A stretch of DNA of 64,000 nt from NCBI RefSeq assembly GCF_900184945.1, contig NZ_FXYF01000009.1, positions 94,174-158,173 of the forward strand. Reading direction: 5' to 3'. This document shows positions 2,816 to 15,652 of this stretch, piece by piece. The notes beneath the pieces are model-generated. The model was not told where the DNA came from. It did not search any database and worked only from the letters and a program-made list of their open reading frames with translations. A program made the translations under genes and the position numbers. The stretch is from Maliponia aquimaris. GTDB lineage: Bacteria; Pseudomonadota; Alphaproteobacteria; Rhodobacterales; Rhodobacteraceae. Position 1 is the first letter of the stretch; every line of letters begins with the position of its first letter.

Positions 2816-2931
2816 TCACTGCCCTCCGCGCCGATTCCCGTGTAAGATGTTTACCTTCTGTTCTTATTCGCTTGACCGGCTTCGATCAATCCGATTTTAT
2901 CCTATTTCATCCACAGATGGGTGGGGATGAC

Positions 2932-3609
2932 ATGACCGAGCACCACACGCTTTCCGACCGCCTCAGAGCCCGGGCCAACCAGCTCGGCATCAGTCCCGCC
3001 CACGTCGCCGAGATGGCCGGCGTGAACCGTTCGTTCGTCTACGACATCCTCCGTGGCCGTTCAGCCCGCCCTGGTATAGACCGGCTGGCCGAGGTCGCCC
3101 GCGTGCTGAAGGTGGATCGCGACTGGCTGATCCATGGCATCGGCGAGGTGGAAGGGAAGCCCCCCTTCTTGGACAATCCTGACGACGCCTTTGTGGCCAT
3201 CGCCCACGCCACCCCGCGCCCGGCAATGGGCGGCGGCGCGGTCGTGACAGAGGACGGCGACACGCCCGGCCGCGTCTATCACTTCCGCCGCTCCTGGATC
3301 CGGAACAGCCTGAAGGCCAGCCCGTCGCAGCTGCGCATCATGCACGTCGAGGGCGACAGCATGGCGCCGACGCTCCTGAGCGGTGACGCGGTGCTGGTCG
3401 ACATGACCCGCCGCGCGCCCAACCCGCCCGGCATCTTCGTGCTGGACGACGGGATGGGGCTGGTCGCCAAGCGGCTCGAGCACATCCCCAACAGCGACCC
3501 GCCCGGGGTGCGCGTCATCTCCGACAACAAGCACTACCCCGAATACGAAAGAACGGCCGACGAGATCCACATCGTCGGCCGTATCCGCTGGTTCGCACGG
3601 GAGATTTAG
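2932..3609 (+). CDS. Phage CI/LexA-type repressor (XRE HTH + S24 peptidase domain)
   Basis: HTH region (LGISPAHVAEMAGVNRSFVYDILRGR) followed by the S24 signature VEGDSMAPTL with downstream VAKRL lysine region. Start ATG 2932 with RBS GGGGA; alternative ATGs at 2872 and 2917. Confidence 0.8.
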   Translation: MTEHHTLSDRLRARANQLGISPAHVAEMAGVNRSFVYDILRGRSARPGIDRLAEVARVLKVDRDWLIHGIGEVEGKPPFLDNPDDAFVAIAHATPRPAMGGGAVVTEDGDTPGRVYHFRRSWIRNSLKASPSQLRIMHVEGDSMAPTLLSGDAVLVDMTRRAPNPPGIFVLDDGMGLVAKRLEHIPNSDPPGVRVISDNKHYPEYERTADEIHIVGRIRWFAREI

Positions 3610-3611
3610 TA

Positions 3612-4958
3612 GTGGCGGCTGAAGAGGAGTTGGACGATCTTCTCGAGCTGGCGGGCTGCTGCTTTCGGGATGCCATGAGGGCCGTCGATATCGAGGCGTT
3701 CTTCTCCAGACGCGACATCCCACTTGCAGAAGGGACCAGCAAGAAGACGGTTGCCCAGAATACGCTCGCAAGCCTTTCGCGAGCAAAGGCGCTGGATCTG
3801 GTCCTCGAGTTTGCACGAGAACGGCGGAATATCGGCCTGCAGGACAGGGTTTACCTCCTGCAAGACAAGGACCAACCGGAGATCTCTGCGATCACTCGCG
3901 ACCGAGTGGCCGATCGCCTTGGTGCCGGGATCCATGGACAAGGCATTCGTCTGGGCGTGATCGAGGGGCTTTTCGATCTGAGTTCGCCTGCCGACTTCTT
4001 CGATAGCCCCACCAAGATCGAAGAGCTCCGACAACACGCGACTGGCGCGGCCCCGTTGTGGAACGCGAAGGATGTTTTCGAAGCCATCGGGGCAATAAAA
4101 TGTCCTTCGAGGAGGTTCGCGCAGCTGATCGAGACCGCTCTGGATCCTCGGTTTCGCGATGCCGACGAACAGACCATGCTGGCAGCGGACTTGACCCGCA
4201 TCCTGCAACTCGATGGCTACGAGGTTGCTCAGACAGGAGAGGTCTCGGGCCGCGCAACGTTCTCGGTACGCCCCATTCGCCGCGGCGTGGATGGGCGGCC
4301 GAAGAATCTGATCTTCGCGTCCAACGGACCAAAGCCGAGGCTCGGGTTCTCGGATGCGATCGACAACGAAGTCGTCGTGCTAGAGCATGCCGACAGCTGC
4401 CTCGTTTACGAGCGCCCCATCGGCAATGGATTGTCATGGCTCGACCTGGTCCGTTGGTGGATGGATCAGAGAGGGATCGCCGACCTCGCCGAAGCACGCA
4501 CCAGCCTCGGGCGGCGTCTACTTGCCTCGCTTGACGACGGCCCTGAGCAGGAGTTCTTCAAGGCGTACTTCCGCAATTTCGCTGAACGACTTGGAGACCG
4601 GCTGCCGGCGCTCATCCCGCAGGTCTACCTGCACTATGATCCGGAGATCGCGAGGCGTCTCCCTGACAAACGAATTCTGTTCCGGCAGCGCATGGACTTC
4701 CTGGTGCTGTTGCCGGGCCGACAGAGGGTCGTCCTCGAGATTGACGGCAAGCACCACTATGCGAAAGGCGAGCGCGCCGATCCCGGCCTGTACGCGGAAA
4801 TGGTTGCGGCTGATCGCAACCTTCGCCTTCGCGGCTACGAGGTGTTTCGGTTCGGGGGCTCGGAATTCTCTAACCCCAAGGGTTCGATGCAGGAATCTGT
4901 CGACAAGCTTGTGAAGTCATTCTTCGAGGAGCTGTTCGTCGTCCATCGCTTAGGATAG
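3612..4958 (+). CDS. Repressor-coupled two-domain protein: unknown N-terminal domain + C-terminal DUF559/Vsr-like PD-(D/E)xK nuclease-fold domain (candidate defence/exclusion protein)
   Basis: GTG start 2 nt after the repressor stop, with GGGAG RBS. C-terminal region (FRQRMDFLVLLPGRQRVVLEIDGKHHYAKGERADPGLYAEMVAADRNLRLRGYEVFRFGGSEF) has the DUF559 layout. N-terminal ~330 aa unassignable by eye. Confidence 0.6.
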   Translation: MAAEEELDDLLELAGCCFRDAMRAVDIEAFFSRRDIPLAEGTSKKTVAQNTLASLSRAKALDLVLEFARERRNIGLQDRVYLLQDKDQPEISAITRDRVADRLGAGIHGQGIRLGVIEGLFDLSSPADFFDSPTKIEELRQHATGAAPLWNAKDVFEAIGAIKCPSRRFAQLIETALDPRFRDADEQTMLAADLTRILQLDGYEVAQTGEVSGRATFSVRPIRRGVDGRPKNLIFASNGPKPRLGFSDAIDNEVVVLEHADSCLVYERPIGNGLSWLDLVRWWMDQRGIADLAEARTSLGRRLLASLDDGPEQEFFKAYFRNFAERLGDRLPALIPQVYLHYDPEIARRLPDKRILFRQRMDFLVLLPGRQRVVLEIDGKHHYAKGERADPGLYAEMVAADRNLRLRGYEVFRFGGSEFSNPKGSMQESVDKLVKSFFEELFVVHRLG

Positions 4959-5273
4959 CGCATCCCAAGAAGACCGCAGGCTTACGCAGAAGTCCCATAA
5001 GCATCTGAAAGTAATTGTTTTCGGGGCGCGCGCGGATAGCGTTTCTCCCATGCGAAACGCGCCGACATATCCGCGGCTGGGATCGAACCCGCTGCCACCC
5101 GACCAGATGACTCCTGCCGAGCGCCGCGCAGAGTTGTGCGACCTGCTGGCGCTGGGGCTGGTCCGGATGCGACTGCGCGAGCGCGGCGAACCTGCTGACG
5201 AAACTGGAGAAATTCTCCTACACTCTCCGGCCGACCAATGCCGTCATGCAACTCCAACTCACCGGAGAACCGC

Positions 5274-5726
5274 ATGACGACCCACGATCCAATTCCCGCG
5301 CGCCTGGCCGCGCTGAAGACCGCGACGACGCCGGAGCTGAAGGCGCAATGGCGCGACCTGTTCGACAGCGACCCGCCGCCGTTCAACCGCCGCTACCTCG
5401 AGAGCCGGCTGGCCTACCGCATCCAGGAACTGGCCTACGGTGGGCTGAAGCCCGAGACGATCCGGCGGCTGGAGCGGCTGGGCGAGGAACTCGACGGCGG
5501 CGACCGGAAGAAGAGCCGGATCCGCGCGGACGCCATGCCCATCGCCGGCACGCGGCTGATCCGCGAGTGGCAGGGCGTCGAACATGTCGTCACCGTCGCC
5601 GCCGACGGCTTTGAATGGCAGGGGCGGCCCTACAAGTCGCTGTCGGCCATTGCCCGCGCCATCACCGGCACGCGCTGGAACGGATGGGTGTTCTTTGGGC
5701 TGAAGAACCGGAGGGCGCGGACATGA
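5274..5726 (+). CDS. DUF2924 family protein (recombinase-associated)
   Basis: ATG 5274 with GGAGAA RBS; stop overlaps the serine recombinase start (ATGA). The motif set (WRDLF, RRYLESRLAYRIQELAYGGL, IREWQGVEHVVTV) is typical of DUF2924 proteins encoded immediately upstream of large serine recombinases. Confidence 0.6.
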   Translation: MTTHDPIPARLAALKTATTPELKAQWRDLFDSDPPPFNRRYLESRLAYRIQELAYGGLKPETIRRLERLGEELDGGDRKKSRIRADAMPIAGTRLIREWQGVEHVVTVAADGFEWQGRPYKSLSAIARAITGTRWNGWVFFGLKNRRART

Positions 5727-7048
5727 CGAAGGCCCCCTCGAAACCAGGAATGATCCGGAAACAGCGCTGCGCGATCTACACGCGCAAGTCGTCCGAGGAA
5801 GGGCTTGAGCAGGAGTTCAACTCGCTCCACGCCCAGCGCGAGGCCTGCGAAGCATTCATCGCCAGCCAGCGCTCCGAGGGCTGGGTGCAGGTCCGCGATC
5901 AATATGACGACGGCGGGATCTCGGGTGGGACTCTGGAACGGGCCGGCCTGAAGCGACTGCTGGAGGACATCGAGGACGGGCTCGTCGACGTGGTCGTCGT
6001 CTACAAGATCGACCGCCTTAGCCGCTCGCTGGCCGACTTCGCAAAGCTGGTGGAGGTGTTCGACCGTAACGGGGTGACGTTCGTCTCCGTCACCCAGTCG
6101 TTCAACACGACCACGTCGATGGGGCGGCTGACGCTGAACATTCTGCTCTCGTTCGCCCAGTTCGAACGCGAGGTGACGGCCGAGCGCATCCGCGACAAGG
6201 TCGCCGCCAGCCGGAAGAAGGGGATGTGGATGGGAGGCGTCCCGCCCTACGGCTACCGGGTCGAGAACCGGAAGCTGTTGGTCGACGAAGACATCGCCGC
6301 GCGTGTCCGCTGGATCTTCGCCCGCTTCCTCGAGATTGGGTCCTGCACGGAGCTGGCACGAGAGGTTGGCGCACGCGGCATCCGCACGCCGCGCGGGAAC
6401 AGGATCGACAAGAAATACATCTACCGGATGCTCAGCAACCGCGCCTACATCGGCGAGGCGGTCCACAAGGGCGAGAGCTATCCCGGCGAACACGACGCCA
6501 TCATCGACCGCGAGATGTGGGACCGAGTCCACGCCATCCTGCAGGAGAGCCCGCGCAAGCGCGCGGCCCGCACACGCGCCGACACGCCCGCGCTGCTGAA
6601 GGGCCTGTTGTACGGACCCGACGGCGCGGCGTTCTCGCCGACCCATACGCGTAAGGGCGACCGGCTGTACCGCTACTACGTCAGCCAGACGGTGCTGAAA
6701 CACGGCGCCGGGTCCTGCCCGGTCGGCCGCGTACCCGCGGGCGAGATCGAGGCCGCCGTCATCGACCAGCTGCGGGCGGTGTTTCGCCAGCCCGAGATCG
6801 TGGCGGGGACGTGGAAAGCAGCACGCGTCCACGTCGACGACATCACTGAGGCCGACGCCCGCGCGGCCCTGCAGCAGCTCGACCCGTTGTGGGACGAGCT
6901 GTTCCCTGCCGAGCAGGCGCGCATCGTTGCGCTGCTGGTCGAACGCGTCGACATCGGCACGGACGGGCTCAACGTGCGCCTGCGCGTCGATGGCCTCGGC
7001 AGCCTCGCGCGCGAGATGCTGGCCGGCGGAATCGAGGCTGCCGCATGA
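5723..7048 (+). CDS. Large serine recombinase (resolvase/invertase catalytic domain + recombinase domain + C-terminal extension)
   Basis: N-term CAIYTRKSSEEG (catalytic Ser region), VVVYKIDRLSRSL, GVTFVSVTQ, then recombinase-domain motifs (GGVPPYGY, YIYRMLSNRAYIGE). ~441 aa. Confidence 0.85.
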   Translation: MTKAPSKPGMIRKQRCAIYTRKSSEEGLEQEFNSLHAQREACEAFIASQRSEGWVQVRDQYDDGGISGGTLERAGLKRLLEDIEDGLVDVVVVYKIDRLSRSLADFAKLVEVFDRNGVTFVSVTQSFNTTTSMGRLTLNILLSFAQFEREVTAERIRDKVAASRKKGMWMGGVPPYGYRVENRKLLVDEDIAARVRWIFARFLEIGSCTELAREVGARGIRTPRGNRIDKKYIYRMLSNRAYIGEAVHKGESYPGEHDAIIDREMWDRVHAILQESPRKRAARTRADTPALLKGLLYGPDGAAFSPTHTRKGDRLYRYYVSQTVLKHGAGSCPVGRVPAGEIEAAVIDQLRAVFRQPEIVAGTWKAARVHVDDITEADARAALQQLDPLWDELFPAEQARIVALLVERVDIGTDGLNVRLRVDGLGSLAREMLAGGIEAAA

Positions 7049-7531: not shown

Positions 7532-7735
7532 ATGCAGATCCTGACCGCGAAAGACGCGAAGTACGGCTTCGGGCGGCTGATTGATCTCGCCCGAGCCGAG
7601 CCTGTCGCGGTGGCGAAGCATGGACGCCCCGTTGTCGTCGTGCTGGCAGTCGAGGAATACGAGCGGCTGAAGGCGCTGGACAAGCCTGGCATCAGTCCGG
7701 GTGAACAAAACGCAGGAAAGAAAACGAGCGAATGA
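7532..7735 (+). CDS. Phd/YefM-family antitoxin-like protein (orphan; fused into the hsdM operon)
   Basis: MQILTAKDAKYGFGRLIDLARAEPVAVAKHGRPVVVVLAVEEYERLKAL fits the Phd/YefM pattern (M..I...E.........A..GPV.I...G.P..VLLS.EEY.RL). ATG 7532 with GGAGAG RBS; stop overlaps the hsdM ATG. No Doc/YoeB-like partner nearby. Confidence 0.6.
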   Translation: MQILTAKDAKYGFGRLIDLARAEPVAVAKHGRPVVVVLAVEEYERLKALDKPGISPGEQNAGKKTSE

Positions 7736-9834
7736 TTGCAGACCACCTGACCGGAATCGAACAGTTTGGCGCGGACCTATGGAAGATGGCCGACGACCTG
7801 CGGGCCAACTCCGGTCTCGCATCGAACGAGTACTTCATGCCAATCATGGGGCTCCTTTTCCTGCGCCAAGCCACGAACCGCTACTATGCTGCTCTCGCTG
7901 CGATCGAGGCGGACAAGGCCGCCGGCAAGATGCCGGATCGACCGCTGGTCGACGCCGACTTCCGCCGCCGCCGCGCAATGCTGCTGCCCGAGGCGGCACG
8001 TTACGACGTGATCCTCGACATGCCCAAGGGCGGTCAGCTTGGCGCTGCGCTCACCGCCGCCATGGAGGAGGTGGAGAAGCATTTCCCGCCGCTCGCTGGC
8101 CAGTTGCCGAAGGACTACGAGCGCTTCGACGATGACCTGCTCGAAAGCATGATGCGCAAGTTCGACACCGAGGCCCTGCGCAATGCTTCCGGCGACGTCT
8201 TCGGCCGCATCTATGAATACTTCCTCGCCGAGTTCTCCAAGCAAGGCGCGCACGACAACGGCGAATTCTTCACGCCGCCCTCCATCGTCCAGACCATCGT
8301 CAATGTGATCGAGCCAGACCACGGCATCGTTTTCGACCCAGCGTGCGGCTCGGGCGGCATGTTCGTGCAGTCCAGCCACTTCATCGAGGACGCGGGCCAG
8401 GACACGATGAAGCGCGTCACCTTCTACGGCCACGAAAAGAACGAGACGACTGCCAAGCTCGCCCAGATCAACCTGGCTGTTCACGGCTTGCAGGGTACGA
8501 TCCGAGCCGGGAATGAAGCGATCACCTACTACAAGGACCCGCACGAACTCGTCGGCAAGTGCGACTTCGTCATGGCCAATCCGCCCTTCAACGTGGACGA
8601 GGTCGACGCCGACAAGGTCAAGGGTGACAAGCGGCTTCCCTTCGGCCTGCCGGGCGTGAACAAGGCCAAGAAGGTCTCGAACGCCAACTACCTGTGGATG
8701 TCATACTTCTACAGCTACCTGAACGAGAACGGCCGCGCCGGGGTCGTCATGTCCAGCCAGGCATCCAGCGCCGGGCGGGACGAGGCGGTGGTGCGCCAGA
8801 AGCTGGTCGAGACCGGCGCCGTCGACGTGATGATCGATATCCGCGGCAACTTCTTCTACACGCGCACCGTGCCCTGTCAGCTGTGGTTCTTCGACCGGGC
8901 GATGGAGCGTGACCCCGAGCGCGCCGATCACGTCTTGATGCTCGATGCGCGCAACATCTACCGCAAGGTGTCGCGGGCCATCTATGACTTCGCGCCCGAG
9001 CAACAGAAGAATATCGCCGCCATCGTCTGGCTCTATCGCGGCCAGACGGACCGCTTCCTGAAACTCGTCGAAAGCTACATCGCGCAGGCCATCGCCGAGG
9101 GCGAGGCGGCGGCGGAACCGTTGGCAGACTATGAACAGGCGCTCGGCAAGCTGATCGATCTGGTGCAGCCCTTCGTCACCGAAAAGCGCGATCCGGATCC
9201 GCTGGCGGAGACCTGGGGCGAACTGACCGGCGCGCGGGCAACGCTGGCGGGGGATATCGCCGGGTTTGACGCCGAGGTGGCGGCGCGGGCAGCGGGCTGG
9301 CTGGGTGCCGCCCGCGACAATGCCGGGCTGCATACGGCGCGCACCGGGCTGCACCCCATGGCGGACCGCTGTCGTGACATGACCAAGCAGATAGACCTAG
9401 CCGCCAAGCTGGCCGGGCGGGTGGTGGATACAGCCATCAAAGAACTGGACGCCCGCGACCATACCCTCTGGCCCAATGCCGAGGTGACGCGCGCCCGCAA
9501 GGCGCTAGAGGGCGCGCGGGCCGCGGCGGTCGAGGCGCTGCGGTCAGCGCGGTACTTCGTGAAACAGGCCGACTGGCTGCAGGAGCGGTTCCCCGATGCC
9601 GTGCTGCGCGATGTCGAGGGGCTGGTGAAACGAATCAGCCGCGCCGAGATCGCGGCCCAGGACCACAGCCTGACGCCCGGCCGCTATGTCGGCGTGGCAC
9701 CCGAGGAGGTGGACGAGGATTTCGATTTCGAGGAGGCGCTGCGATCGATCCACATCGACCTGAAGGGGCTGAACGAGGAGGCCGAGGCGCTGGCGGCGCG
9801 GATCGCCCGGAACTTTGAGGAGTTGGGGGTGTGA
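7732..9834 (+). CDS. hsdM: Type I restriction-modification system, DNA methyltransferase subunit M
   Basis: 700 aa. N6-adenine MTase motif VMANPPFN, SAM-binding region FDPACGSGGMFVQS, HsdM N-terminal domain. Confidence 0.9.
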   Translation: MIADHLTGIEQFGADLWKMADDLRANSGLASNEYFMPIMGLLFLRQATNRYYAALAAIEADKAAGKMPDRPLVDADFRRRRAMLLPEAARYDVILDMPKGGQLGAALTAAMEEVEKHFPPLAGQLPKDYERFDDDLLESMMRKFDTEALRNASGDVFGRIYEYFLAEFSKQGAHDNGEFFTPPSIVQTIVNVIEPDHGIVFDPACGSGGMFVQSSHFIEDAGQDTMKRVTFYGHEKNETTAKLAQINLAVHGLQGTIRAGNEAITYYKDPHELVGKCDFVMANPPFNVDEVDADKVKGDKRLPFGLPGVNKAKKVSNANYLWMSYFYSYLNENGRAGVVMSSQASSAGRDEAVVRQKLVETGAVDVMIDIRGNFFYTRTVPCQLWFFDRAMERDPERADHVLMLDARNIYRKVSRAIYDFAPEQQKNIAAIVWLYRGQTDRFLKLVESYIAQAIAEGEAAAEPLADYEQALGKLIDLVQPFVTEKRDPDPLAETWGELTGARATLAGDIAGFDAEVAARAAGWLGAARDNAGLHTARTGLHPMADRCRDMTKQIDLAAKLAGRVVDTAIKELDARDHTLWPNAEVTRARKALEGARAAAVEALRSARYFVKQADWLQERFPDAVLRDVEGLVKRISRAEIAAQDHSLTPGRYVGVAPEEVDEDFDFEEALRSIHIDLKGLNEEAEALAARIARNFEELGV

Positions 9835-11051
9835 TGGCACGCACTGCTGAAATCGGCGAGTGCGTGGAAGTCGTCAGCGGCCCCGCGTTCAAGAGCGCGC
9901 AATTCACGGACAATCCTTCCGACGTGCCCTTGATAAAGGGCGAGAACGTCGCCCAAGGCTACATTGCTTGGGACAAGTCGAAGTATTGGCCCGCAAACGA
10001 CACAGAGGGCTACGAACGGTTCGGCCTCGGCGCAGGCGACATCGTCTTAGCAATGGACCGGCCTTGGATCACGGCGGGCTTGAAGTGGGCGCGCCTCAGG
10101 CCACACGATCCGCCGAGCCTGCTAGTGCAACGGGTGGCGCGGCTTCGAGCTAAACCGGGCATGCGCCAAGATTATCTCACCTATGTGATCGCCTCTACGC
10201 AGTTCTCCGATTATGTCCGAAACATCATGGGCGGCACGAATGTCCCGCACATTAGCGGCGCGCAGATCAAGGCGTTCAAGTTCAGGCTACCCGGTGAAAA
10301 CGAGCAGGCGGCAATCGCCGACATCCTCTCCGCCTATGATGACCTGATCGAGAACAACCGGCGACGCATTGCGCTGCTGGAGGAGGCGGCGCTGCTGCTC
10401 TACCGGGAGTGGTTCGTCCACTTCCGCTTCCCCGGCCATGAACACGCCCCTCTCACCGACGGCCTCCCCGAGGGCTGGGAGCGGGTGCCAGCGGCAGAAG
10501 CCTTTGAAGTAAATCCGAAGACCAGCCGAAATGACGACGGTGTAATCCGCTATATACCGATGTCCGCGCTGTCAGAGACAGGAATGGTCATCGACCGCGG
10601 GCCAGTGGAAGACCGCGATAAATCCACGAGCGTCCGGTTCCGGAACGGCGACACTCTGCTCGCCCGCATCACCCCGTGCCTTGAGAATGGCAAAACGGGA
10701 TATGTGCAGCTCCTCGCGGAAGACGAGGTTGCCTGTGGCTCGACCGAATTCATCGTCCTGCGTGGCCGGCGCGTCAGCAACTACATCGTCTATCTGACCG
10801 CGCGACAACATGATTTCAGGGAGAACGCGATTCGAAGCATGATCGGCTCATCGGGAAGGCAGCGCGTCCAGCCGAGCTGCTTCGACCGTTATCTTGTGCC
10901 AATCCCGCCTCAAGTCCTCTCGACGCTGTTTGACGAGGCGGTGGGTGGCATGTTCGCCCAGATCGGCAACCTCGATCAGCAGAACCAGAAGCTCGCCCAA
11001 GCCCGCGACCTCCTCCTGCCGCGCTTGATGAACGGGGAGATCGCGGTGTGA
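9831..11051 (+). CDS. hsdS: Type I restriction-modification system, specificity subunit S (two target-recognition domains)
   Basis: ATGA overlap with hsdM. Two TRD repeats with conserved central and C-terminal coiled regions (LLLPRLMNGEI at C-term). Confidence 0.85.
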   Translation: MMARTAEIGECVEVVSGPAFKSAQFTDNPSDVPLIKGENVAQGYIAWDKSKYWPANDTEGYERFGLGAGDIVLAMDRPWITAGLKWARLRPHDPPSLLVQRVARLRAKPGMRQDYLTYVIASTQFSDYVRNIMGGTNVPHISGAQIKAFKFRLPGENEQAAIADILSAYDDLIENNRRRIALLEEAALLLYREWFVHFRFPGHEHAPLTDGLPEGWERVPAAEAFEVNPKTSRNDDGVIRYIPMSALSETGMVIDRGPVEDRDKSTSVRFRNGDTLLARITPCLENGKTGYVQLLAEDEVACGSTEFIVLRGRRVSNYIVYLTARQHDFRENAIRSMIGSSGRQRVQPSCFDRYLVPIPPQVLSTLFDEAVGGMFAQIGNLDQQNQKLAQARDLLLPRLMNGEIAV

Positions 11052-11839
11052 CAGGCGGCTTCTTCAAAGGTCCCCGCGATTTCGACCCTGCCGCCCTGAA
11101 GGCCGGGTTGGCGGCCATGACAACGCCCCGAGACCGCACGAAGAAGCTGCTCCGCCACACCCTGCTCGACCAGCAGCTCGACGCCATCAAGGCGGTTGTG
11201 CGCAATCACGAAGCCGAGCGGGAGGGGACAGGCCACCAGTTCGAAATTCTGGATACGGACCCGCGCTGGAGAGGGGAGTTCGACGGCGGGCTGGAGGCGC
11301 GGCGTGAGGAGGCGTTCTGGCACCTGACGTTCCAGGCGTCCGCGCACAGCATGTCGGCTGTGGGGATGCTCGCCCCATTCATCGAGTCCCTGTTCGTTGC
11401 GATCTTCGCCGGATTGAGGGACCGGGTGGCGCTTCCGGCCGGCCACCCGCGCTTGACCCTGAACGAGAAAGAGCACTGGAATCCGCGGATCTATCAAGGC
11501 AGTAAGGCTGCCCGGACCGACCTGCTGAAAGGGATCATGCAGTTGTCGGAGGCGACGGGCCTCGAGCCGCACCTGCCACCCCAAACCGAGATGACGCTGG
11601 AAGCGCTTTTCCGCTACCGCAACAACATGTTCCACAACGGCTTTGAGTGGCCTGATGGCAAGATCGAGAGCTTTGCGGCCGAGAGATCGAAATGGCCGGA
11701 AGGCTGGTTCGAGATCGCGGAGAGGAACGACAAGCCATGGCTGTTTTACATGTCGCCACAGTTCTGCACCCACTGCGTGACTACGGTCGACGGCATCATC
11801 GACGGCACTGGCCGGTATTTGAAGGAGCGTGGCGGGTGA
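11048..11839 (+). CDS. HEPN-motif (Rx4H) protein embedded between hsdS and hsdR (candidate abortive-infection RNase-like effector)
   Basis: 263-aa ORF translationally coupled to hsdS (overlap 11048..11051) and 18 nt upstream of hsdR. Contains LFRYRNNMFHNGFEWP with R191-x4-H196 (nt 11618..11635), the HEPN catalytic signature. Confidence 0.5.
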   Translation: MTGGFFKGPRDFDPAALKAGLAAMTTPRDRTKKLLRHTLLDQQLDAIKAVVRNHEAEREGTGHQFEILDTDPRWRGEFDGGLEARREEAFWHLTFQASAHSMSAVGMLAPFIESLFVAIFAGLRDRVALPAGHPRLTLNEKEHWNPRIYQGSKAARTDLLKGIMQLSEATGLEPHLPPQTEMTLEALFRYRNNMFHNGFEWPDGKIESFAAERSKWPEGWFEIAERNDKPWLFYMSPQFCTHCVTTVDGIIDGTGRYLKERGG

Positions 11840-11857
11840 TTTGATGAGGGACATTGG

Positions 11858-14800
11858 ATGGCGGTAACGGGGATAAACAGCGAGGATCGACTGGTTCAGG
11901 CCACCTTCGCCGAGCATCTCGAAACGGTGCTGGGCTGGGAAAACGTCTACGCCTACAATCAGGAGGTGCTCGGGCCGGAGGGCACGCTGGGGCGCAAGGA
12001 CACGACCGAGGCGGTCCTGACGCGCGACCTGCGCGCGGGCCTCCACCGACTCAACCCCGACTTGCCGGAACCAGCCATCGAAGACGCGATCCGCGCGCTG
12101 ACCGTCTACGACGTCAGCCGCTCCATGGTGCAGCACAACCGCGATTTCTACCGAATGCTGCGCGGCGGCGTGCCCGTCACCTATCGCGACGCGCAAGGAC
12201 GCCAGAAATCCGCCCGCGCCAGGGTGATCGACTTCGACAATGCCCCCGGGGCCAACCGCTTCCTCGCCGTGCGCGAGTTGAAGCTGACCGGGATCCGGAC
12301 GCCCAACTACAACCGCCGCGCCGATCTGGTCTGCTTCGTGAACGGCCTGCCGCTGGTCTTCATCGAGCTGAAGGCCGTCTACAAGAACATCCGGGCGGGG
12401 TTCGACGGCAACCTGCGCGACTACATGGACGAAAACGTGATCGCCCATGCGTTCCATCACAACGCCTTCCTGATCGTGTCGAACGGCGACCGCGCCCGCT
12501 ACGGCTCGATCACCAGCGCGTGGGAGCATTTCAACGAATGGAAGCGGCTCGAGGAGGCGGATGAAGGCAGCGTCGATGCGGAGCGTCTGCTGAATGGCAT
12601 GCTGGCGCATGACCGTCTGCTCGATCTGGTCGAAAACTTCATCCTGTTCGACGAAAGCAAGGCGGGCGCCGCGCGCAAGGTGGTGGCGAGGAACCATCAG
12701 GTGCTGGGCGTTAACCGTGCCGTGGCCTCGGTCGCACGGCAGGAGGCGATCAAGGCCGACATCCCGCCCGGAGAACGCCTGCGGCACCGCGTTGTCGAGT
12801 TGCCGCTGGAGCGAAAAGCGCCGACGAAGCGCAGGAAAGGCGAGCAGGCGCTTGTGACGGCGGAAACGGCGCTGCCGTCTTTCATCCCCGAAGGTCCGGT
12901 CGACATAATCGAGCGGGCGCACCCCGACCTCGGCCGGTTGGGCGTGTTCTGGCACACGCAGGGCAGCGGCAAGTCCTATTCCATGGCCTTCTTCGCCGAG
13001 AAGGTGCGGCGCAAGGTGCCGGGTAATTTCACCTTCCTGCTGATGACCGACCGGAACGATCTCGACAGCCAGATCTACAAGACCTTCGTGGGCTGCGGCA
13101 TTGCCGGGAACGATACCCCGCGCGCGGCCTCCGGCGATGATCTGGAACGGATCCTGAAGGAGAACAACCAGTACGTCTTCAGCCTGATCCACAAGTTCAA
13201 CAAGGACGTGGACCCGAAGAAGCCCTACAGCGAGCGCGACGACATCATCGTGATCTCGGACGAGGCGCACCGCACGCAGGCAGGGCGGTTGGCCCGCAAC
13301 ATGCGCCTTGCGCTGCCCAATGCCGCCTTCATCGGCTTCACCGGCACGCCGCTGTTCAAGCAGGACGAAATCACCAAGCGCATCTTCGGCGAATATGTCT
13401 CGCGCTACGACTTCAAGCGATCCGAGGAGGACGGCGCTACCGTCAAGCTGGTCTACGAGAACCGGGGCGAGAAGCTGGGTGTCGCCAAGACGGATCTGAA
13501 CGACCGGATCGCCGAGAAGATCGAGGAGGCGGAACTCGACCCGGATCAGGCGGCGCTCCTCGATAAGCTGCTCGGAAAGGATTACGAGGTCATCACCGCT
13601 GATGAGCGGCTCGACAAGATCGCAGCCGATTTCGTGGACCACTGCGCAACGAGGTGGGAATCCGGAAAATCCCTCTTCGTTTGTATCGACAAGATCACCT
13701 GCGCCCGGATGCACCAGATGATCATACCGCGATGGCAGGCGAAGGCTGCAGAAGTCAGGGCGGCAGCCGATGCCAAGCAAGCCGAGGCGGATACCACGGC
13801 CGACGAAACCATGCGCGCTGTCCTCGCGGAGGAGGCGCAAGTACTGGATGCGCAGGCAACGTGGCTCCAGGAAACCATCGTCGAGATCATCATTAGCGAA
13901 GCGCAGAACGAGGTCGCGGACTTCAAGAAATGGGGGTTCGACATCATCCCGCACCGTGCCCTGATGAAGCAGGGTTTCGATACCGGGAATGGCGAACGGA
14001 TCGATGTCGAGACGGCATTTAAGAACCCCAAGCACCCGTTCCGCGTCGCAATCGTCTGTGCGATGTGGCTGACCGGCTTCGACGTGGAATGCCTGTCGAC
14101 GCTCTATATCGACAAGCCGATGAAGGCCCACACGCTGATGCAGGCCATAGCGCGCGCGAACAGGGTGTATCCTGGAAAGGATTTCGGCCTGATTGTCGAC
14201 TACAATGGAATGCTCGCCAGCCTGCGAGCAGCGCTCGCGCAGTACGCGCTCGGTGATGATGGCACAGGCGGAGAAGAGATCATCGCCCCCATCGAGGAGA
14301 GGGTGCAGGCACTGCTCGAAGCTATCGAGGCGACCGAGGCGCATCTGAGGAGCCTCGGCTTCGACCCAAGCGTTCTGCTCGGCTCGAAGGGCTTTGTGCG
14401 CATCAGGGGTCTGAAGGACGCCGTGGAAGCCGTCTATTCGACGGATGAGTCCAAGCGGCGCTTCGAGATTCTCGCACGGCAGGTGTTCATTCGCTTCAAG
14501 GCGCTGCTGATGGAACCCAGCGCTTGGGCATACGCCGAACGACACGACAACATCGAAGCAATCTACAAGAAGCTGACCGAGCGGCGCGACACGGCTGACG
14601 TGACAGAGCTGTTGAAGGAGTTGCACCGGATCGTCAACGAAGCCATCCGGACGCAGGCGCCAGGAGACGACCAAGCCGAGGGACTGACCTTCGACCTCAG
14701 TCAGATCGATCTTGAGAAGCTGCGTGATGAATTCGCAAAGAAGGTCAGACGCAAAGCGACCGCGCTTCAGGACATTCGAGACATCGTCGAACAGAAACTC

Positions 14801-15283
14801 GCCGAGATGCTGGCGCGCAATCCCGCAAGAATGGACTATCAGGTGAAGTACGAGGCAATCATCGCCGACTACAATCGGGAGAAAGACCGAACCACCATCG
14901 AGGAGACATTCCGTCGACTGGTCGAGCTCGTGAACAGTCTGGACGAGGAACAGAAGCGCGCAACGAAGGAGGGGCTTGGCGAGGATGAACTCGCGCTCTT
15001 CGACCTGCTGCTCAAGGATAACCTGGACAAGACGTCTCGTGAGCGGGTGAAGCAGGCGAGCCGCGACCTCTTGGCATCCATAAAGGCGCGCCTGGCTGAG
15101 CTCGATCGCTTCTGGGAGAAGGAACAGACCAAGGCAGACGTCGAGGTCTTCATCTTGGACGAAGTCTTCGCAAGTTTGCCGTCACCGCCGTTCACGCCCG
15201 ATGAAAAGAAAGCGCTTGCGGCAAGCGTCTACGCCCATGTGTGGCAGCAGGCCGTGAACGGTGGCTTCGCGCAGGCGGCCTAG
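11858..15283 (+). CDS. hsdR: Type I restriction enzyme, R subunit (helicase/endonuclease)
   Basis: 1141 aa. SF2 helicase motifs (VFWHTQGSGKS Walker A, VISDEAHRTQ DEAH box), HsdR N-terminal nuclease region, long coiled-coil C-terminal extension. Confidence 0.9.
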   Translation: MAVTGINSEDRLVQATFAEHLETVLGWENVYAYNQEVLGPEGTLGRKDTTEAVLTRDLRAGLHRLNPDLPEPAIEDAIRALTVYDVSRSMVQHNRDFYRMLRGGVPVTYRDAQGRQKSARARVIDFDNAPGANRFLAVRELKLTGIRTPNYNRRADLVCFVNGLPLVFIELKAVYKNIRAGFDGNLRDYMDENVIAHAFHHNAFLIVSNGDRARYGSITSAWEHFNEWKRLEEADEGSVDAERLLNGMLAHDRLLDLVENFILFDESKAGAARKVVARNHQVLGVNRAVASVARQEAIKADIPPGERLRHRVVELPLERKAPTKRRKGEQALVTAETALPSFIPEGPVDIIERAHPDLGRLGVFWHTQGSGKSYSMAFFAEKVRRKVPGNFTFLLMTDRNDLDSQIYKTFVGCGIAGNDTPRAASGDDLERILKENNQYVFSLIHKFNKDVDPKKPYSERDDIIVISDEAHRTQAGRLARNMRLALPNAAFIGFTGTPLFKQDEITKRIFGEYVSRYDFKRSEEDGATVKLVYENRGEKLGVAKTDLNDRIAEKIEEAELDPDQAALLDKLLGKDYEVITADERLDKIAADFVDHCATRWESGKSLFVCIDKITCARMHQMIIPRWQAKAAEVRAAADAKQAEADTTADETMRAVLAEEAQVLDAQATWLQETIVEIIISEAQNEVADFKKWGFDIIPHRALMKQGFDTGNGERIDVETAFKNPKHPFRVAIVCAMWLTGFDVECLSTLYIDKPMKAHTLMQAIARANRVYPGKDFGLIVDYNGMLASLRAALAQYALGDDGTGGEEIIAPIEERVQALLEAIEATEAHLRSLGFDPSVLLGSKGFVRIRGLKDAVEAVYSTDESKRRFEILARQVFIRFKALLMEPSAWAYAERHDNIEAIYKKLTERRDTADVTELLKELHRIVNEAIRTQAPGDDQAEGLTFDLSQIDLEKLRDEFAKKVRRKATALQDIRDIVEQKLAEMLARNPARMDYQVKYEAIIADYNREKDRTTIEETFRRLVELVNSLDEEQKRATKEGLGEDELALFDLLLKDNLDKTSRERVKQASRDLLASIKARLAELDRFWEKEQTKADVEVFILDEVFASLPSPPFTPDEKKALAASVYAHVWQQAVNGGFAQAA

Positions 15284-15561: not shown

Positions 15562-15652
15562 GTGGCGGAGACGAAGGGATTCGAACCCTCGAGACGGTTT
15601 CCCGTCTGCACCCTTAGCAGGGGTGTGCCTTCGACCACTCGGCCACGTCTCC
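15562..15652 (-). tRNA. tRNA-Ser (anticodon GCT)
   Basis: RC reads GGAGACG-TG-GCCGAGTGGTCGAAGGCA-CACCC-CTGCTAA-GGGTG-long variable arm-GAGGG-TTCGAAT-CCCTT-CGTCTCC-G-CCA. 3-bp D-stem and long extra arm typical of Ser; CCA encoded. Confidence 0.85.

Follow-up and report, generated by a model that had tools for sequence, protein, structure and literature searches.

That HEPN RNases can be nested in restriction-modification (R-M) operons is not a new idea, having been familiar since PrrC and the HEPN census of 2013. At least 16 HEPN clades are R-M linked (Anantharaman et al., PMC3710099), and the genes embedded in type I R-M operons are usually defence genes, a pattern described as 'embedded defence' (Payne et al., bioRxiv 10.1101/2024.01.29.577857). 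The subject of this analysis is a gene of an unnamed family, here called gene X, which lies between the specificity gene (hsdS) and the restriction gene (hsdR) of a type I R-M operon of the alphaproteobacterium Maliponia aquimaris, in a stretch of 64,000 nucleotides (contig NZ_FXYF01000009.1, positions 94,174 to 158,173 of the forward strand) that is referred to throughout as the window. By analogy with the systems described below, we take X, with middling confidence, to encode a HEPN-like endoribonuclease that is self-contained and serves as an effector of abortive infection.

The slot hsdM-hsdS-[effector]-hsdR is common to X and to PrrC of the type Ic R-M system EcoprrI, which also has an Rx4H-type HEPN-like catalytic motif and, as proposed for X, a presumed role as a second line of defence. 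PrrC is a protein of ~400 aa with an N-terminal regulatory ABC-ATPase domain and is almost always R-M embedded, whereas X has only 263 aa, no NTPase domain and no ATPase match in Pfam, and is mostly found outside R-M operons; sequence similarity between the two is undetectable. Two single-protein HEPN anticodon nucleases provide another standard of comparison. HepS of the Gifsy-1 prophage (PDB 9oik) is activated by a siphovirus tail-tip protein (PMC13043305); unlike this prophage-encoded protein, X is unmatched in phage genomes, and it has no sequence similarity to HepS. ApeA, a single HEPN-domain antiviral protein reported as embedded in R-M operons (Anantharaman et al. 2013), represents a paradigm of auto-inhibition followed by ligand activation and forms large ring oligomers that are activated by deoxydinucleotides (bioRxiv 10.64898/2026.01.26.701840), whereas nothing comparable is known for X. 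The HepT toxins of HepT/MntA (HEPN-MNT, DUF86; PDB 5yep, 8xdj, 7ae2) have ~130 aa and are always paired with an MNT antitoxin, whereas X is twice as long, with large inserts and no MNT neighbour. HEC-08 (Payne et al. 2024) is likewise a nested HEPN protein, to which the argument of 'guilt by embedding' applies as it does to X, and defence depends on the histidine of its Rx4-6H motif, but it carries DUF3644 and zinc ribbons and is embedded in the multi-gene system Hma; X differs in architecture and has no PADLOC model. By analogy, X would work most like HepS and ApeA, as a single-gene HEPN abortive-infection system, while sitting where PrrC sits.

The host operon has the order hsdM-hsdS-X-hsdR on one strand, with the signature domains of HsdM, HsdS and HsdR all present (Pfam):

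7732..9834, + strand: hsdM, 700 aa, with HsdM_N and N6_Mtase domains (Pfam, E 2e-68)
9831..11051, + strand: hsdS, 406 aa, with a Methylase_S domain (Pfam)
11048..11839, + strand: gene X, 263 aa, unnamed family, predicted HEPN-like RNase
11858..15283, + strand: hsdR, 1141 aa, with HSDR_N, SWI2_SNF2, T1R_D3-like and T1RH-like_C domains (Pfam)

The original prediction, which had been made by inspection of the window, placed a 263-aa open reading frame (ORF) at 11048..11839 between hsdS and hsdR, and this was borne out by an ORF check and by the Pfam assignments of the neighbours. The distance of 18 nt that it gave from the end of X to hsdR (11840..11857) is also correct, as is the 4-nt overlap with hsdS, but the overlapping sequence is GTGA around the hsdS stop codon and not ATGA, X having a GTG start codon. 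This start is supported by homologues of X, because their own starts ('MT...') fall in the same alignment column, and a Shine-Dalgarno-like GGGGAG is found 6 nt 5' of it. No terminator-like or promoter-like site was found on the + strand from hsdM to hsdR in a scan for promoter and terminator consensus sequences, so a single transcript is plausible; an Rfam scan found nothing inside the operon and only a flanking tRNA. X is thus plausibly coupled in translation to the 3' end of hsdS and co-transcribed with hsdR. An antisense ORF of 1232 aa (10976..14674, - strand) is best read as a high-GC shadow of hsdR and X, because it is the + strand that has Pfam matches and homologues. The C-terminal ~250 residues of HsdM are without a Pfam domain, and for the methyltransferase subunit of a type I system the protein is of unusual length.

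The conservation of X was examined in an alignment of 47 homologues that are 35-84% identical to it. X contains seven matches to Rx4-6H, and at least one Rx4H occurs in 57% of shuffled X sequences, while the more specific R[NDH]x3H occurs in 8.6% of them. The bare Rx4H motif in X is no more than would be expected by chance, and the signal is its conservation. Only one pair among the seven matches, R191/H196, is invariant in the 47 homologues, and N192 is kept in 98% of them. The placement of R191-x4-H196 at 11618..11635 in the original prediction was accurate, and this Arg/His pair, within the block YRNNMFHNGFEWP, belongs to the invariant core of the family. Y190, S101 and E113 are likewise invariant, the latter two within the block AHSMSAVGMLAPFIESLF, and there are five invariant Trp residues. 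The two conserved blocks lie as follows:

11618..11635, + strand: R191-N192-N-M-F-H196, candidate catalytic Rx4H motif, where the predicted third core helix (residues 180-197) has its C-terminal end
11339..11395, + strand: residues 98-116, the second invariant block AHSMSAVGMLAPFIESLFV, within helix 2 of the prediction, which is long, and including the invariant S101 and E113

The ratio dN/dS of X is 0.24-0.43 overall, 0.02-0.05 in the motif block of residues 98-120, and 0.13 in the block of residues 180-202 in the sole comparison for which it could be computed. By these comparisons X is under purifying selection, a constrained and functional gene.

The HEPN domain is defined as a four-helix up-down bundle in which inserts are frequent between helices 2 and 3, with Rx4-6H where helix 3 ends, reaching into the loop that precedes helix 4, a polar residue (N, D or H) after the Arg, and a conserved acidic residue in helix 2, usually as Ex3[KR] (PMC3710099). 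An AlphaFold2 model of X built with the family alignment (pLDDT 91, pTM 0.86) has helices at residues 40-69, 80-123, 159-170, 180-197, 203-213 and 237-260 plus two small hairpins, and a second model has the same order of secondary structure. In the predicted layout, helix 1 is 40-69, helix 2 is 80-123 with the invariant Glu113, an insert occupies 124-179, helix 3 is 180-197 and ends in R191-N-x3-H196, and helix 4 is 237-260, with an extra helix and a Trp-rich beta-hairpin predicted at 203-235. The conserved Rx4-6H of the 47 homologues has a polar residue after the Arg, and in the AlphaFold2 secondary structure the motif stands at the end of core helix 3 with an insert between helices 2 and 3; E113 is the candidate for the acidic residue that HEPN sites have in helix 2. 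At the level of secondary structure the modelled X is thus compatible with each point of the HEPN definition, and the structure prediction proposed earlier as a check on X gave a model compatible with the four-helix core. HEPN-superfamily chains make up 18 of the 60 top hits, among them HepT toxins, KNTase, Csm6/Csx1, HepS, AbiA, MtlR, AF0298, TTHA0636, Roquin and the integron HEPN protein 3jrt.

Several results weigh against this assignment. The Foldseek search of X against the PDB gave no significant match (best E 0.2), and searches of the PDB by sequence or profile gave none at all. No Pfam family matched X or any of the 47 members at E<=1, the ApeA-type HEPN model included, and there were zero matches for X in NCBIfam, PADLOC-DB 2.0 and PHROGs, nor was it matched in a phage genome collection. 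The sole HEPN family compared profile to profile with the X family, a set of 51 bona fide PF01934 proteins (HepT/DUF86), was aligned by hhalign with a probability of 0.2% in local, permissive and global modes, and a regular-expression hunt in the fetched loci found zero DUF86-like ORFs. The context of E113 is ESLFV, not the usual Ex3[KR] of HEPN helix 2. On balance X is probably a divergent HEPN domain, and is predicted to be a metal-independent endoribonuclease; we infer its HEPN homology rather than regard it as established. The original prediction could place X in none of the named HEPN families and saw no obvious antitoxin partner, which agrees with the empty Pfam, NCBIfam and PADLOC results and with the lack of a recurrent neighbour (see below). 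The X family is unnamed and without a model in the Pfam, NCBIfam and PADLOC libraries searched.

X has 209 close relatives, and a census of 1.84 billion representative sequences found the family to comprise 564 clusters at 50% identity (E<=1e-3), or 263 at E<=1e-30. All members are single-domain proteins of ~240-330 aa without fusions. They are found in Alphaproteobacteria (roseobacters, Rhizobiales and Sphingomonadales), Acidobacteriota, Planctomycetota, Chlorobi, Nitrospirota, Chloroflexi, Desulfobacterota, Latescibacterota and one CPR bacterium, and also on conjugative plasmids of Agrobacterium and Aminobacter, including an octopine Ti plasmid. The sole IMG/VR match is to the same hsdM-hsdS-X-hsdR operon, on a contig classed as viral (L084, UViG_3300048930_001257) that probably represents an island integrated in a genome and not a phage.

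The genomic neighbourhoods of X homologues were sampled at 80 loci (numbered L001 and so on), which were searched with HsdM, HsdS and HsdR of the window by tblastn and iterated jackhmmer. Embedded copies of X number 18, with hsdS directly 5' of X in 17 of them; the remaining contig (L007) begins at X, and hsdR is next. At two more loci (L016 and L060) a type I system is nearby, and at the other 60 there are no type I genes within 10 kb of X. The start/stop overlap of hsdS and X, 4-11 nt in length, is kept in 12 of the 14 loci where both ends are visible. The HsdR of the host operon is 98% identical to that of the window in the loci nearest to it, and only 37-38% in those of Chlorobi and Nitrospirota. 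The distant type I loci have more embedded genes between the X homologue and hsdR, in the following intervals:

L037: 10783..14212
L043: 10861..14433
L040: 2729..6150
L041: 3194..3898
L064: 2642..3538

These extra genes encode a RecQ-like helicase with a PRTase-like tail together with a DprA/SLOG protein, AAA_15/AAA_21 ABC ATPases, a Schlafen-HATPase_c_4-Fic-like protein, a cytidine-deaminase-domain protein, DUF3800 and DUF488.

Genes tightly coupled to free copies of X are typically defence genes, such as that of the Schlafen AlbA_2 protein in L068, and PADLOC models matched by other neighbours include MzaB, HmaC, GajB, AbiEi, a DRT reverse transcriptase, HerA, DUF499 and type I restriction endonucleases. 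On the Aminobacter plasmid pUSP2, X adjoins genes annotated as a restriction endonuclease, a PAPS reductase-family protein, an ATP-binding protein and a DUF4007 protein, a cluster that is read as Dnd/Ssp-like. The X homologues show a strong association with type I R-M loci and with defence islands, in support of the original prediction. No constant partner was found: none of the Pfam families among 119 ORFs adjoining X recurs beyond two loci; when the small ORFs up to 1.5 kb from X were compared all against all, only lineage-specific neighbours and no conserved partner emerged; and an MNT nucleotidyltransferase antitoxin is neither beside X of the window nor recurrent in the neighbour comparisons. 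In a neighbour-joining tree built on the conserved core, the embedded copies are interspersed among the free ones; for example, L003 and L007 (embedded) group with L004 and L005 (free), L011 with L006, and L037 with L044 and L048. X therefore moves repeatedly in and out of type I loci, and because of this interleaving it is regarded as an autonomous, horizontally mobile module and not as an obligate, PrrC-like dependant of a restriction complex.

Some individual neighbourhoods deserve mention. In L016 (4456..10738), the order is GmrSD (type IV restriction), an EcoEI-type hsdR whose product begins with a DUF4145 domain, and the X homologue, whose start overlaps the stop codon of hsdR, so that here X lies after hsdR, not before it. 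In L019 (22..5936), the X homologue is directly 3' of a TPR-GreAB-C-PIN conflict system (Pfam PIN-TPR-GreABC and Permuted_GreAB-C). The homologue on the octopine Ti plasmid of Agrobacterium (L081, NC_002377.1, 119291..124717) is 36% identical to X over residues 94-262 and stands in a series encoding an ATP-binding protein, a PIN protein, X, a trypsin-like peptidase, a TIR protein and an ABC-three-component system. A protein of 271-294 aa without a Pfam match adjoins the X homologue upstream in L047, L049, L051 and L052 (9109..9924) and downstream in L020 (4599..5483); it contains 'FMESLF', which resembles a stretch in X, but its profile does not match X significantly, and it may be a clade-specific partner.

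The operon of the window was compared with those of Tropicibacter (L001), Paracoccus (L003) and Palleronia (L024). HsdM and HsdR of the window are 95-98% identical to theirs in protein sequence and 92-95% in DNA sequence, whereas HsdS is only 36-42% identical and X 38-67%. DNA similarity is lost at the target-recognition domains of hsdS and regained in or after X, giving recombination breakpoints at ~11235 and 11339 inside X and at 11846 after it. Within X, only residues ~100-120 and 180-200 remain 75-95% identical. The synonymous divergence (dS) of X is saturated at ~1.3-1.5, as opposed to 0.12-0.22 for hsdM and hsdR, so the X alleles are older than the flanking genes. The target-recognition domains of hsdS together with X form a hypervariable cassette that is replaced by recombination between conserved hsdM and hsdR arms. 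Positive selection was ruled out as the cause of the divergence of X: dN/dS is below 0.5 (in the two comparisons with saturated dS, 0.24-0.35 for X and 0.02-0.03 for the block 98-120) and dS is saturated, indicating replacement of alleles and not fast evolution in situ. HsdS of the window is 65-71% identical to that of L010, L030 and L031, where X is only 37-43% identical, and L001 has the reverse pattern (HsdS 36%, X 60%). To judge from these identities, X and HsdS alleles assort independently, and so there is no sign that X co-evolves with a particular HsdS.

The region around the operon of the window resembles an integrative defence island situated beside a tRNA gene. The tRNA-Ser(GCT) gene (minus strand, 15563..15652) is just 3' of the operon, and DNA identity with the Tropicibacter locus extends to it; the GC content is 0.60-0.65 over ~2-16 kb and 0.68-0.73 in the flanks. 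Upstream of the operon are genes for a DUF2924 protein (5238..5726) and a large serine recombinase (5615..7048). Further upstream, a CI/LexA-like repressor gene with helix-turn-helix and Peptidase_S24 domains (2872..3609, + strand) is directly followed by a gene for a 448-aa AbiJ_NTD3 protein (3612..4958). In L062, the X homologue has its start overlapped by a homologous AbiJ_NTD3 gene, and the AbiJ_NTD3 and X families thus co-occur twice. The operon itself is headed by a small gene that overlaps the start of hsdM, with no classical toxin gene adjoining:

7532..7735, + strand: Phd/YefM-type antitoxin-like gene, 67-aa core, beginning MQILTAK (Pfam E 1e-11)

This gene is present at the same place, with 79-100% identity, in L001, L003, L011 and L024 only, and may control transcription of the R-M operon.

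The possibility that X is a PrrC-like guard, a latent RNase masked by the type I R-M complex and freed when a phage anti-restriction protein disables that complex, has to be weighed because X occupies the exact prrC slot between hsdS and hsdR (the arrangement of PrrC in PMC3710099), because its adjacency to and overlap with hsdS recur across lineages and phyla and would give stoichiometric co-expression with HsdS, and because so many HEPN clades are R-M linked. Nevertheless, we consider it unlikely, since three quarters of the sampled X copies lack type I genes within 10 kb and the tree mingles embedded with free copies, whereas PrrC is almost exclusively embedded (bioRxiv 10.1101/2024.01.29.577857), while X, with only 263 aa and no Walker A motif, has no counterpart of the regulatory ABC-ATPase domain of PrrC, and its alleles assort independently of those of HsdS. 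The suggestion in the original prediction that the restriction complex keeps X silent, or releases it, is accordingly disfavoured. A reduced version of the same idea, which we judge decidedly unlikely, is that X is an NTPase-less guard made in step with HsdS and docked on the methyltransferase/restriction complex, its RNase being switched on when an anti-restriction protein or failure of HsdR disturbs the complex, while outside R-M loci it would be a self-contained sensor-effector. If true, this would be a second and much simpler solution to the problem that PrrC solves, and would explain why X is exchanged as a cassette with hsdS. That X is instead a subunit of the type I enzyme, with an accessory or regulatory role in assembly, restriction alleviation or control of HsdR, and not a toxin, could be argued from its tight translational coupling to hsdS, its close spacing to hsdR and its exchange along with the specificity cassette, but is very improbable given that most family members have no R-M partner, that X alleles differ so widely (38-67% identity) beside near-identical HsdM and HsdR (96-98%), and that the invariant polar residues are enzyme-like.

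Two other explanations concern the nature of the protein and of its control. X might be a defence-island protein that is not an HEPN RNase, a generic helical bundle in which the Arg/His pair is convergent and the activity is another, such as ligand or nucleic-acid binding or the role of a sensor or adaptor. This appears rather unlikely to us: it would account for the lack of a profile link to any HEPN family and for invariant features that lie outside the HEPN definition (the AHSMSAVGMLAP block and the five invariant Trp), but the invariant R-N-x3-H that ends the third core helix, with the invariant Glu of helix 2, is the published HEPN signature. Alternatively, X could be the toxin of a split pair whose antitoxin is the Phd/YefM-like gene at 7532..7735, which overlaps the start of hsdM without a classical toxin in the window and in L001, L003, L011 and L024. 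We hold this to be extremely unlikely, since the Phd-like gene accompanies X in these four of the 80 loci, all of them the closest R-M relatives, and is absent from the other embedded copies and from all free copies, and no small ORF recurs beside X at any locus. The same count rules out the Phd/YefM-like gene as a general antitoxin partner of X.

We infer RNase activity, abortive infection and self-control for X as follows. As a self-contained HEPN-like effector, X would probably cut tRNA anticodon loops or mRNA, by analogy with the single-protein HEPN defences. Because it is mostly free-standing, without a conserved antitoxin or partner, it must hold itself inactive, presumably as an auto-inhibited oligomer. 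A phage-derived trigger would then act on the fast-diverging, non-catalytic parts of the protein, and the fast-diverging regions outside the motif blocks together with the Trp-rich hairpin are a candidate sensing surface. About a quarter of X copies have landed directly 3' of hsdS in type I R-M operons, where X is transferred and recombined along with the specificity cassette and would be co-expressed with it. A nested X would thereby form a second, RNA-directed layer of defence behind DNA restriction.

What is new here is an unnamed, compact family (~260 aa, one gene, no partner) that extends over many phyla and onto Ti-type conjugative plasmids. It is a clean and testable candidate for a new single-gene abortive-infection system. 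The questions that merit experiments are how a partner-less HEPN toxin silences itself and why X and hsdS are swapped jointly between near-identical hsdM and hsdR genes. The inclusion of the X family in defence-finder databases would annotate several hundred genes that are now 'hypothetical'.

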